Source: a virus
DNA length: 64,000 nucleotides
Strand: one strand, 5' to 3'
Virus record (IMG/VR): IMGVR_UViG_3300025383_001098
Below, in pieces: positions 17,041-18,080 of this stretch. Position numbers and translations under genes: made by a program. Within the stretch, counting starts at the first letter, position 1, and every line of letters begins with the position of its first letter. Under the pieces are notes generated by a model. That model was not told the DNA's origin. It saw nothing but the letters and a program-made list of their open reading frames with translations, and ran no database searches.

Positions 17041-17068
17041 TAATACTGCTGGGGGATAAAACCCCCAG

Positions 17069-17229
17069 CAATATTGGTAAGTGTTTGAGACGTAAAGAGG
17101 GTATCGTTTGTGGACGCACAGACTCATGAAGGATAGGGCCATCTTACCCTTCTGATAAAACCGTGTCAATGGCTAAGGACTGGAAGCACCGGACTCCAAA
17201 ATTCGACTCTCAAACATTTTCCAATATTG
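17069..17229 (+). ncRNA. Candidate structured ncRNA 1 (unrecognised)
   Basis: Closing stem 17069-17090/17208-17229 with 21 of 22 pairs; internal hairpins GTTTGTG/CACAGAC and GAAGG/CCTTC; intergenic. Confidence 0.65.
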
Positions 17230-17242
17230 TATAGGAGTTATT

Positions 17243-17332
17243 ATGCCTAAAATTTTGTTAAAAGAATTACCATACTATGTTGTTTGGCGCATTAAACAGA
17301 TATTAAAACAACTCAAACTTCAAACTAAATAG
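17243..17332 (+). CDS. Small basic protein (29 aa)
   Basis: AGGAG SD; MPKILLKELPYYVVWRIKQ. Confidence 0.5.
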   Translation: MPKILLKELPYYVVWRIKQILKQLKLQTK

Positions 17333-17339
17333 TTTTACC

Positions 17340-17519
17340 ATGGATAAGAAAAAGCCAGTTTCTGGATACTACTACTCCGAAAAGGAGTGGGCAAGGTTGG
17401 GGTGTGGCGCACTACCACCAGAACGTGATCGTGATCGCGAACATGCTAAAAATCATCAAGAAGCAGCCGCACGTGGTAATCCAAAAATTGATGGCAATAT
17501 TGTAAAAGGATACAATTAA
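17340..17519 (+). CDS. Small hypothetical protein (59 aa)
   Basis: MDKKKPVSGYYYSEKEWARLGCG; read by hand. Confidence 0.55.
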   Translation: MDKKKPVSGYYYSEKEWARLGCGALPPERDRDREHAKNHQEAAARGNPKIDGNIVKGYN

Positions 17520-17612
17520 ATGTTTACCGCTTTTGCAGTATTGTTGATAGGAAGTGTATTAATTTACATTATGATTGAAGTCAAAGACTGGATCGACAAC
17601 GATCAGCAATAA
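17520..17612 (+). CDS. Small membrane protein (30 aa)
   Basis: Starts immediately after previous stop; one hydrophobic helix. Confidence 0.5.
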   Translation: MFTAFAVLLIGSVLIYIMIEVKDWIDNDQQ

Positions 17613-17738
17613 GTAAACTTTCTGAGTAGCTACAATGGAACACCGAAATACTTGTCAATGTCGACCATGAACAAGGACCGGCCATGAAGAGCAGGGCTAT
17701 CGCGGATTCAAGCGCCACAGAGAGTTTTCTTATTGTTG
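17604..17738 (+). ncRNA. Candidate structured ncRNA 2 (unrecognised)
   Basis: Closing stem 17604-17624/17718-17738 with 20 of 21 pairs; nested TAGC/GCTA, ATGG/CCAT, CTTGT/ACAAG stems. Confidence 0.62.
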
Positions 17739-17739
17739 T

Positions 17740-18060
17740 AATTCCTTTGTAGTGAAGGCATTGTGGACCCGGGTTCGATTCCCGGCATCTCCACCAGAAA
17801 GTGTATTAGCCACTTAATACATAAATGCGGAGTCGTACCGGTACACCTTCCGCGGGTTAGCATAAGGTTCGAAACTTATGTGTTAATACACTTTCTAATG
17901 GGGATGACAAGGTTTCGACATGGTGAGATAGCGAACAAGGCAACACGAGAGGTCAACTCGTAAAAAGCAAAAAAACGTAAACGCAAACGACGAACAGTTC
18001 GCATTAGCGGCCTAAACACCGCTTAGGGCAGGAAATGCCTCGTAACAGAAACAACCAGCC
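17740..18060 (+). ncRNA. ssrA: Circularly permuted (two-piece) tmRNA
   Basis: T-arm CCGGG-TTCGATT-CCCGG and CATCTCC-A-CCA (ends 17796) lie upstream of the 5' end GGGGATG (17900); G3:U70 pair; tag ORF 17983-18015 ANDEQFALAA*; outer ends approximate. Confidence 0.93.
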
Positions 18061-18080
18061 CCTTCGGGGGCTCCACTTTA
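18057..18080 (+). terminator. GC-rich UUCG hairpin at the tmRNA 3' end
   Basis: AGCCCC-TTCG-GGGGCT; weak U-tract. Confidence 0.55.

Follow-up and report, generated by a model that had tools for sequence, protein, structure and literature searches.

The DNA analysed here, a window of 64,000 nucleotides (nt) from the IMG/VR viral record IMGVR_UViG_3300025383_001098 (a contig of 127 kb, CheckV completeness 35%), holds a stable-RNA locus of an uncultured freshwater jumbo phage. Three RNA genes lie on one strand of this locus, namely two noncoding RNAs, here called unit A and unit B, and a two-piece (permuted) transfer-messenger RNA (tmRNA), and they are intermixed with two real small protein genes (Table 1). 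Unit A belongs to a family of pseudoknotted RNAs and unit B to a family of transfer RNA (tRNA) mimics, each held together by extensive covariation and absent from Rfam 15. From sequence comparison we favour the reading that both act in trans and engage the tRNA or translation machinery, over action in cis, a selfish element or a ribozyme. A first-pass annotation, made from the letters of the window, had taken three stem-bracketed units of the locus for an array of candidate undescribed phage RNAs, tRNA-derived or regulatory. A, B and C turned out to be three different things with no kind in common: A and B are indeed undescribed, while unit C is a known feature, the spacer of the permuted tmRNA.

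Covarying RNA families represented by units A and B

Three long stems bracket units of 100-160 nt: A (17069-17229), B (17604-17738) and C (17797-17899). The arms of unit A (17069-17090 and 17208-17229; 22 nt, 91% complementary) and those of unit C together with the tmRNA acceptor stem (17786-17808 and 17884-17906; 23 nt, 87% complementary) are the best two inverted repeats of the 64-kb window. The stem of unit B (17604-17624 with 17718-17738), made of 20 pairs and one U-U mismatch, was predicted in every fold and is not among the 25 pairs shown by a gapless inverted-repeat search. Compared with shuffled sequences, fold energies gave z scores of -5.63 (A with flanks), -4.37 (B) and -4.25 (C), and 0 of 200 shuffles were as good. 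The inverted-repeat search, the folds and the shuffles thus bear out the three near-perfect stems of the first-pass annotation, and the interleaving of the units with three small open reading frames (ORFs) and the tmRNA is also as it had described. The interiors alone, that of unit A included, scored z -0.2 to -0.6, so that the fold-energy signal comes from the closing stems only; interior fold energy does not discriminate here, since it is non-significant even for unit A, whose fold is proven by covariation (see below). The stems of A (22 bp) and B (20 bp and the U-U mismatch) are of the size cut by RNase III (about two turns, at least 20 bp), and so is the 15-bp stem of C as it runs on into the 7-bp acceptor stem. 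As had been noticed, the word TTC(G/A)A occurs exactly once in each unit, at 17202, 17707 and 17868, 6-14 nt before the 3' arm; with 142 occurrences in 64 kb, about 0.07 are expected per 30-nt window.

The family of about 160-nt pseudoknotted RNAs that contains unit A is real and folds as described here. A MAFFT alignment of 14 copies shows four internal helices within a closing stem of 21 bp, plus a pseudoknot, and 96.6% of its cells pair, as against 31-46% when the partners are slid. The covariance model R1, in which the window copy is one of the 14 seed rows, gave 72 further matches outside the seed; the 86 full-length matches, 77 of them distinct, are from loci drawn from more than 120 metagenome contigs. 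Among the 77 distinct copies 94.4% of cells pair (35-41% slid), and all closing-stem pairs (21/21) show compensatory changes. The pseudoknot, which is not part of R1, links the loop of P3 with the strand after P4 and reads GCGU/ACGC, GCGA/UCGC or GCCG/CGGC across the family, its variable pair being A-U in 50 copies, U-A in 24 and G-C in 1. On the window unit R1 scores 124.8 bits (E value 5e-29) on the + strand and 32.9 bits on the - strand; this copy is the most divergent of the original set of 14 sequences. Its P3 hairpin differs from that of the family and the pseudoknot pairing is retained, in another sequence and shifted by one column (GGCCAU 17137-17142 with AUGGCU 17169-17174).

Relatives of unit A stand right after a conserved gene for a protein of 113 amino acids (aa), as in the window, in the related phage loci L006/L007, L008, L012 and L013, further downstream of this gene in L014-L016 and L020, and elsewhere inside tRNA arrays. 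A tRNA starts within 12 nt downstream of 41 of the 77 copies (tRNA-Cys in 21), another ends within 8 nt upstream of 17, and the number of neighbouring tRNAs on the opposite strand is 0. Unit A is single copy in the 127-kb contig, as it is in each record searched that has it. It has no match in Rfam 15, nor any relevant one when short stretches were scanned at E values up to 10, and a search for exact matches to its conserved core found 0 in 185,579 bacterial and archaeal species genomes. At the position of the TTCGA of the window the family consensus reads AAAUUGG; the T-loop-like word is therefore not kept, and unit A shows nothing tRNA-derived.

The interior of unit B has no relative detected by nhmmer in a first set of 58 loci or in a later set of 85, and the first two exact patterns derived from it, which span variable positions, had no match. 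Its first relative was found in L088, where the order is as in the window (small ORF 3, B, tmRNA); the two B copies are 94% identical, in comparison with 65-79% for unit A, the ORFs and the tmRNA. An exact 30-nt core of B is present in 31 viral contigs and its 3' motif in 94. Model R2, which scores 153.8 bits (E value 4e-35) on the window unit, gave 83 matches, of which 72 are distinct; 97.7% of the cells of these copies pair (32-50% slid), with compensatory changes in 26 of 33 pairs. The B family is likewise real, and its fold comprises a closing stem, one long rod, nearly invariant in its junction-side half and free in sequence and length in its distal half, and a short hairpin that immediately precedes the closing stem's 3' strand. 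In T-loop register one pair of this hairpin is without exception G-C (57 copies) or A-U (15 copies), the closing pair is A-G and the loop reads UUCAAGC. UUCAA is kept throughout the family, the two most divergent copies reading UUCAA and UGCAA, and one of these two, L097, reads GGUUCAAUUCC, the usual sequence of a tRNA T-arm. B is thus a tRNA mimic, with an acceptor-like stem and a T-arm-like hairpin and with a long rod that replaces the D and anticodon arms. The T-loop idea of the first-pass annotation was right for B because of this hairpin, its register and its exceptionless pair, and did not hold as a shared feature, the word being conserved in B alone; tRNA likeness, too, is confined to the acceptor and T-arm part of B.

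Most copies of B occupy a slot the size of a tRNA in tRNA arrays, where 3-6 nt separate them from the preceding tRNA and 5-14 nt from the following one (e.g. Ser-B-Trp). The stem is followed by ACC in 43 of the 72 copies, and phage tmRNA genes end likewise, in ...CCACC plus a variable base. The window copy, which reads UUUUCUUAUUG, is without an ACC tail, has a stem of 21 bp and has no tRNA neighbour; together with those of L088, L136 and L097 it forms a long-stem subtype that lacks ACC and has its stem extended to 18-21 bp. In L243, L246, L251 and L277 the B core is cargo of a permuted tmRNA spacer; for example, in L277:5201-5337 (minus strand, tag ANESVYKIAA) a complete B RNA lies between ...CCUCCACCA and GGGGGUG. 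Neither unit B nor array-type B has a relevant Rfam 15 match at E values up to 10, and the exact core motif gave 0 matches in a one-genome-per-species collection of bacteria and archaea that was searched for exact matches only. Descent of B from A as a diverged copy was rejected, as R1 gives no match on B, and identities of 8-10 nt between B and segments of ribosomal RNA, found by eye, were judged compatible with chance. Many loci of the B family (e.g. L208, L209, L210, L212) also have a conserved element of about 45 nt (...CUCAGUCUAGGGCUCAUGUGGUGUGAGUAGCUAGAC...) upstream of B, which resembles the terminal 3' portion of a further structured RNA.

Among known RNAs, tag-less mini-tmRNAs such as that of mycobacteriophage DS6A (PMC11915505) and tRNAs with 8/4 or 9/3 acceptor/T-stem branches (PMC5389517) bear on B. 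With the tRNA-like domain of tmRNA it shares an acceptor-like stem that stacks on a short stem resembling a T-arm, with a UUCAA loop, the A-C-C tail of the array copies and a long helix in place of the anticodon stem; it differs from that domain in having neither the G3-U70 pair nor an analogue of the D-loop. As in the 8/4 tRNAs, an 8-bp stem and a T stem of 4 positions would give B a branch of 12 pairs. The T stem of tRNAs closes with G-C and that of B with A-G, the window copy is without the ACC tail, and neither ARAGORN nor Rfam recognises B as a tRNA or tmRNA. The species 1 and 2 RNAs of phage T4 (rnaC and rnaD), small stable RNAs of its tRNA cluster with no known role, have been known for fifty years. 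A and B resemble them as small, putatively stable RNAs that lie within a phage tRNA cluster on the same strand, and rnaC further has a T-arm (CCGGGUUCGAAUCCCGG) and an end-to-end stem. Homology was rejected, since R1 and R2 stay below 12 bits anywhere in the T4 tRNA region with filters off, and both score below 5 bits on rnaC and rnaD themselves. The structured RNAs GOLLD and ROOL, to which no function has been assigned, occur in phages and in lake metagenomes and often lie beside tRNA genes; they are several times larger than A or B and are catalogued in Rfam. A and B are likewise structured phage and lake RNAs near tRNA genes, but neither matches these families.

The searches of catalogued families gave little else. 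At gathering threshold, Rfam 15 matched only tmRNA and tRNA in the window and 17 related loci, and blastn in distant mode against GenBank phages matched only the T-arm of the tmRNA. Canonical tRNAs were rejected as candidates, as ARAGORN found none in the window and the Rfam tRNA model matched none of the three units at E values up to 10. A Y RNA (YrlA) acting with Ro/Rsr was rejected as well: in the stretches scanned tmRNA was the only Rfam 15 family to exceed its cut-off, and the 127-kb contig, which at about 35% of the genome leaves genome-wide absence unproven, encodes no TROVE protein.

Unit C and the permuted tmRNA

The tmRNA of the window scores 158.8 bits with RF01850 beta_tmRNA (cut-off 84) and 145.1 bits with RF04321 tmRNA_permuted (cut-off 47). 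Its parts follow one another in the permuted order, i.e. T-arm, acceptor 3' strand, CCA, intervening sequence, acceptor 5' strand and coding part. The tag given by ARAGORN is ANDEQFALAA, followed by a stop, and when GGGGAUG is paired with CAUCUCC the third pair is G-U, the G3-U70 pair that specifies alanine. Since the CCA ends at 17796 and the coding piece begins at 17900, the sequence that intervenes is unit C. In 17 distinct tmRNA genes of related phages the spacer measures 29-274 nt and its ends pair over 8-16 bp beside the acceptor stem (at least 10 bp in 16/17), in sequences that differ between phages; the stem of unit C is therefore a conserved structural feature. A search of about 680 kb of related DNA with nhmmer (the first 58 and later 85 loci) detected no relative of the interior of C. 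Conservation of structure at related loci, which the first-pass annotation had named as a check, was accordingly found for A and B, by covariation, and for the stem of C, but not for its interior.

Two-piece tmRNAs have been described before (Keiler 2000; Sharkady & Williams 2004; both as cited in PMC9004378), and phage-borne ones are also known (PMC9004378). The intervening sequence is absent from mature tmRNA, having been removed by tRNA-processing enzymes, and the rare spacer cargo on record consists of one tRNA-Ala and one repeat element (PMC11915505). The gene of the window has the same make-up, an acceptor piece with CCA, a spacer (C) and a coding piece with the tag frame. The difference is that in this phage group the spacer ends form a 10-16-bp extension of the acceptor stem, and that the spacer may carry small ORFs (L025, L033) or an RNA of the B family (L243, L246, L251, L277); cargo of the small-ORF or B type was not found in the permuted-tmRNA literature searched.

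The spacer ORFs are both preceded by a Shine-Dalgarno sequence (AAGGAG). That of L025:4671-4765 is small and encodes a hydrophobic peptide of 24 aa, and that of L033:4467-4745 spans most of the 274 nt. Long tmRNA tags of 26-33 residues (e.g. AKASTLGTVKVSMGRGFRFARGTEAVAA), in comparison with the usual 10-residue ANDxxxALAA, are found in L008, L033, L036-L039, L042, L043 and L079. Permuted tmRNA genes that ARAGORN missed are present in L019, L026, L032 and L035, as shown by the CCACC...GGGG stem signature and by blastn to the coding piece of the window.

Proposed slots and processing, and rival explanations

We propose that the long stems would be the paired flanks of "slots", i.e. spacers between processing sites, and would reflect no trait shared by the interiors. 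In the relatives a slot may separate two tRNAs, precede the tmRNA or lie within the tmRNA spacer, and it holds either an empty hairpin or a cargo RNA at its tip; the A and B families occupy several kinds of slot. L022 has an empty hairpin of 14-15 bp where L012 carries unit A, and L055 has an empty hairpin of 9-10 bp, between tRNA-Glu and tRNA-Cys, where L052 carries unit A. Given this geometry and the established maturation of tRNAs and permuted tmRNAs, host enzymes that make tRNA ends, RNase P at the next 5' end and 3' trimming at the previous CCA, would release the cargo of arrays as well as that of the tmRNA spacer. In the window, RNase III would most likely cut the stems of A and B and so separate both from the messages of the small ORFs. 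It is the likeliest enzyme here because A and B have no tRNA neighbours and stems of 21-22 bp; a stem of that length, about two helical turns, is the classic minimal substrate of RNase III. Cleavage of the B stem would also create the 5' end of the tmRNA acceptor piece. Once released, A and B would act in trans on the translation or tRNA-handling machinery of the host. The single polycistronic precursor, processed into units, that the first-pass annotation had envisaged is plausible, and it fits with one predicted promoter and with the lack of a predicted + strand terminator up to 18400. To the explanation as a whole, slots, processing and action in trans, we assign a probability of roughly 0.6.

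Several points weigh against this explanation. Three complete relatives of 355-374 kb lack unit A, which is therefore dispensable. The window copies of A and B have no flanking tRNAs and B has no ACC tail, so that the RNase P route does not apply to them as it stands, and what points to RNase III instead is the length of the stems (21-22 bp). The promoter and terminator scans report consensus matches only, and co-transcription, cleavage sites and stability of the RNAs are all inferred from sequence. No particular partner or target is tied to A or B. Finally, the alignments A3 and A6 were fitted to the models and favour modelled pairs; the same result is obtained from the MAFFT alignments A2 and A4 and from the pseudoknot and T-arm pairs, which the models do not include.

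Stems and interiors might, alternatively, act in cis only, as barriers to RNase III or exonucleases or as folding insulators, the excised pieces being by-products. The conservation of the C stem and not of its interior would suit such a role, as would the empty hairpins that serve the same purpose at these sites in related phages, the dispensability of unit A in three complete genomes and the finding that the interiors fold no better than shuffled sequence. A mere spacer, however, would need none of the features that are conserved in A and B, whose interiors are far more conserved than their surroundings (94% for B against 65-79% for its flanks). The exact 30-mer of B recurs in 31 contigs, internal helices, pseudoknot and T-arm covary, and both families keep one core whether they lie between different tRNA pairs, ahead of the tmRNA or in the tmRNA spacer. 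We consider a role in cis only to be unlikely. The recurrence of the same core in many different slots could also be the mark of selfish mobile modules, similar to miniature inverted-repeat elements, that would insert in hairpin tips of phage RNA gene clusters and persist with no benefit to the phage; presence or absence that varies at homologous sites with precise empty hairpins, near identity of B in otherwise diverged phages and patchy distribution among relatives agree with this. Mobile modules are difficult to reconcile with a single copy per genome in every record searched (the 127-kb contig and five large relatives) and with an orientation that is always that of the tRNAs, with 0 opposite-strand neighbours, and copy number and orientation weaken the case for a miniature inverted-repeat element in particular. 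The structure is strand-specific and includes G-U pairs (R1 scores of 125-196 bits on the + strand and at most 33 on the - strand), the compensatory changes maintain an RNA fold and not DNA ends, and no transposase or target-site duplication was seen. A selfish origin of A and B thus appears quite improbable.

Ribozymes similar to that of hepatitis delta virus are located downstream of some phage tRNAs, and unit A, and perhaps B, might by the same token be self-cleaving and cut a polycistronic tRNA/tmRNA precursor. In favour of this, the pseudoknotted core of unit A is compact and contains single-stranded stretches that are invariant, and the unit directly adjoins tRNA ends. A cut in this core would nevertheless leave the flanks joined, because the 21-bp stem ties the 5' and 3' ends together, the downstream end is already set by RNase P, and no ribozyme family of Rfam 15 matches even at E values up to 10; we regard self-cleavage as very improbable.

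Trans-acting RNAs that engage the tRNA or translation machinery are the reading that we prefer for A and B. A narrower proposal, which we make tentatively and with considerable doubt, is that they form a cargo-RNA kit of giant lake phages, carried in the spacers of tRNA arrays and tmRNA, released by the host and serving as decoys or cofactors for factors that recognise the shape of tRNA. These factors may include RNase P, the CCA-adding enzyme, EF-Tu, SmpB, the ribosome and tRNA-cutting defence nucleases; B might then bear a CCA tail and perhaps be aminoacylated. The tRNA clusters of uncultured jumbo phages hold at least two further RNA families that are widespread, strongly constrained and absent from Rfam 15, and one of them (B) keeps only the acceptor/T-arm half of a tRNA and can sit inside a tmRNA spacer. 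Both are testable candidates for the manipulation of translation by phages or for evasion of tRNA-directed defence. A simple rule is suggested for how these RNAs arise, namely that a cargo RNA can be housed in any spacer flanked by two processing sites of the tRNA type, and the covariance models R1 and R2 would improve the annotation of such regions, which are now left blank or filled with spurious ORFs.

Host, neighbouring genes and other elements of the locus

Table 1 Features of the stable-RNA locus in the 64-kb window
Feature	Position	Strand	Description
Sigma-70-like promoter	16600..16628	+	TTGACT, 17 nt, TATAAT; 11/12 consensus positions
113-aa protein gene	16699..17040	+	Kept in 53 related phage loci
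G+C-rich hairpin 3' of the 113-aa stop codon	17046..17071	+	Without T run; last bases overlap the 5' arm of unit A
Unit A	17068..17231	+	Closing stem 17069-17090 / 17208-17229; internal helices P2-P5; model R1
Small ORF 1, 29 aa	17243..17332	+	May not be a gene
Small ORF 2, 59 aa	17340..17519	+	Real conserved gene; relatives in 25 loci
Small ORF 3, 30 aa, hydrophobic	17520..17612	+	Real gene, conserved in 19 loci
Unit B	17604..17738	+	Long-stem form without ACC tail; T-arm-like hairpin 17701-17716; UUCAA 17707-17711; model R2
tmRNA acceptor piece	17734..17796	+	5' strand of long helix, T-arm, acceptor 3' strand 17786-17792, discriminator A, CCA 17794-17796
Unit C (tmRNA intervening sequence)	17797..17899	+	14-15-bp stem 17797-17810 / 17882-17896 extends the acceptor stem
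tmRNA coding piece	17900..18075	+	5' GGGGAUG; tag frame 17983-18015; terminal hairpin at about 18047-18071

The phage is classed as a jumbo phage because its relatives reach 355-374 kb, and the related contigs are mostly from lake metagenomes, as read from the sample identifiers. Its host is probably betaproteobacterial, since two TctC/Bug receptor genes lie directly downstream of the locus and the best-scoring Rfam model for the tmRNA is the betaproteobacterial one. The equivalent position in related phages is occupied by tRNA arrays of up to 22 tRNA genes.

In agreement with the first-pass annotation, which had placed the nearest clear promoter at 16600, a consensus scan found no other strong + strand promoter ahead of the RNA locus; no + strand terminator was predicted between 16300 and 18400. 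The promoter sits within a 25-nt inverted repeat (16585-16635), the arms of which are 80% complementary and 1 nt apart; this repeat may be an operator or the 5' hairpin of the transcript. The 113-aa gene, driven by this strongest local promoter, is always directly upstream of an island of RNA, tRNA or tmRNA genes in the 53 loci. Its product has no Pfam or PHROG match and might be an abundant nucleic-acid-binding protein. Right after its stop codon, L012, L013, L008, L017, L020, L022 and L029 have a conserved hairpin (GGGGCAUCGCUGGGAAGCGUAUUAGUCCCC), the inner GNRA-tetraloop stem of which covaries; in L007 and in the window its place is taken by a plain G+C hairpin.

As regards the small ORFs, no relative of ORF 1 was found among the related loci. 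The relatives of ORF 2, with 41-72% amino-acid identity, are often located just upstream of the tmRNA, and the last codons and stop codon of ORF 3 form the outer 5' arm of unit B.

Other structured elements recur in the same region of related phages. A G+C-rich block of about 200 nt lies between the 113-aa gene and the small ORFs in L017:4436-4640, L007, L014 and L020, and the same block (...GGACCCGCCCGGGUAACGCUGGGCUAGUGUGACCCGCACGAAGGAG..., ending in ...CGCAGAGCAUU) is found upstream of unit A in L067, L068 and L070; no Rfam family matches this block, which probably represents a further structured RNA, as yet uncatalogued. A stem-bracketed unit of about 75 nt, with a stem of 19-21 bp and the core GCCCGAACC...GGUAGCAAGGCGAAAGCC, is present in L017:4359-4435, L020:4374-4446 and L025:4365-4436. 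In L014:4367-4608 a perfect stem of 24 bp encloses 194 nt of other cargo.

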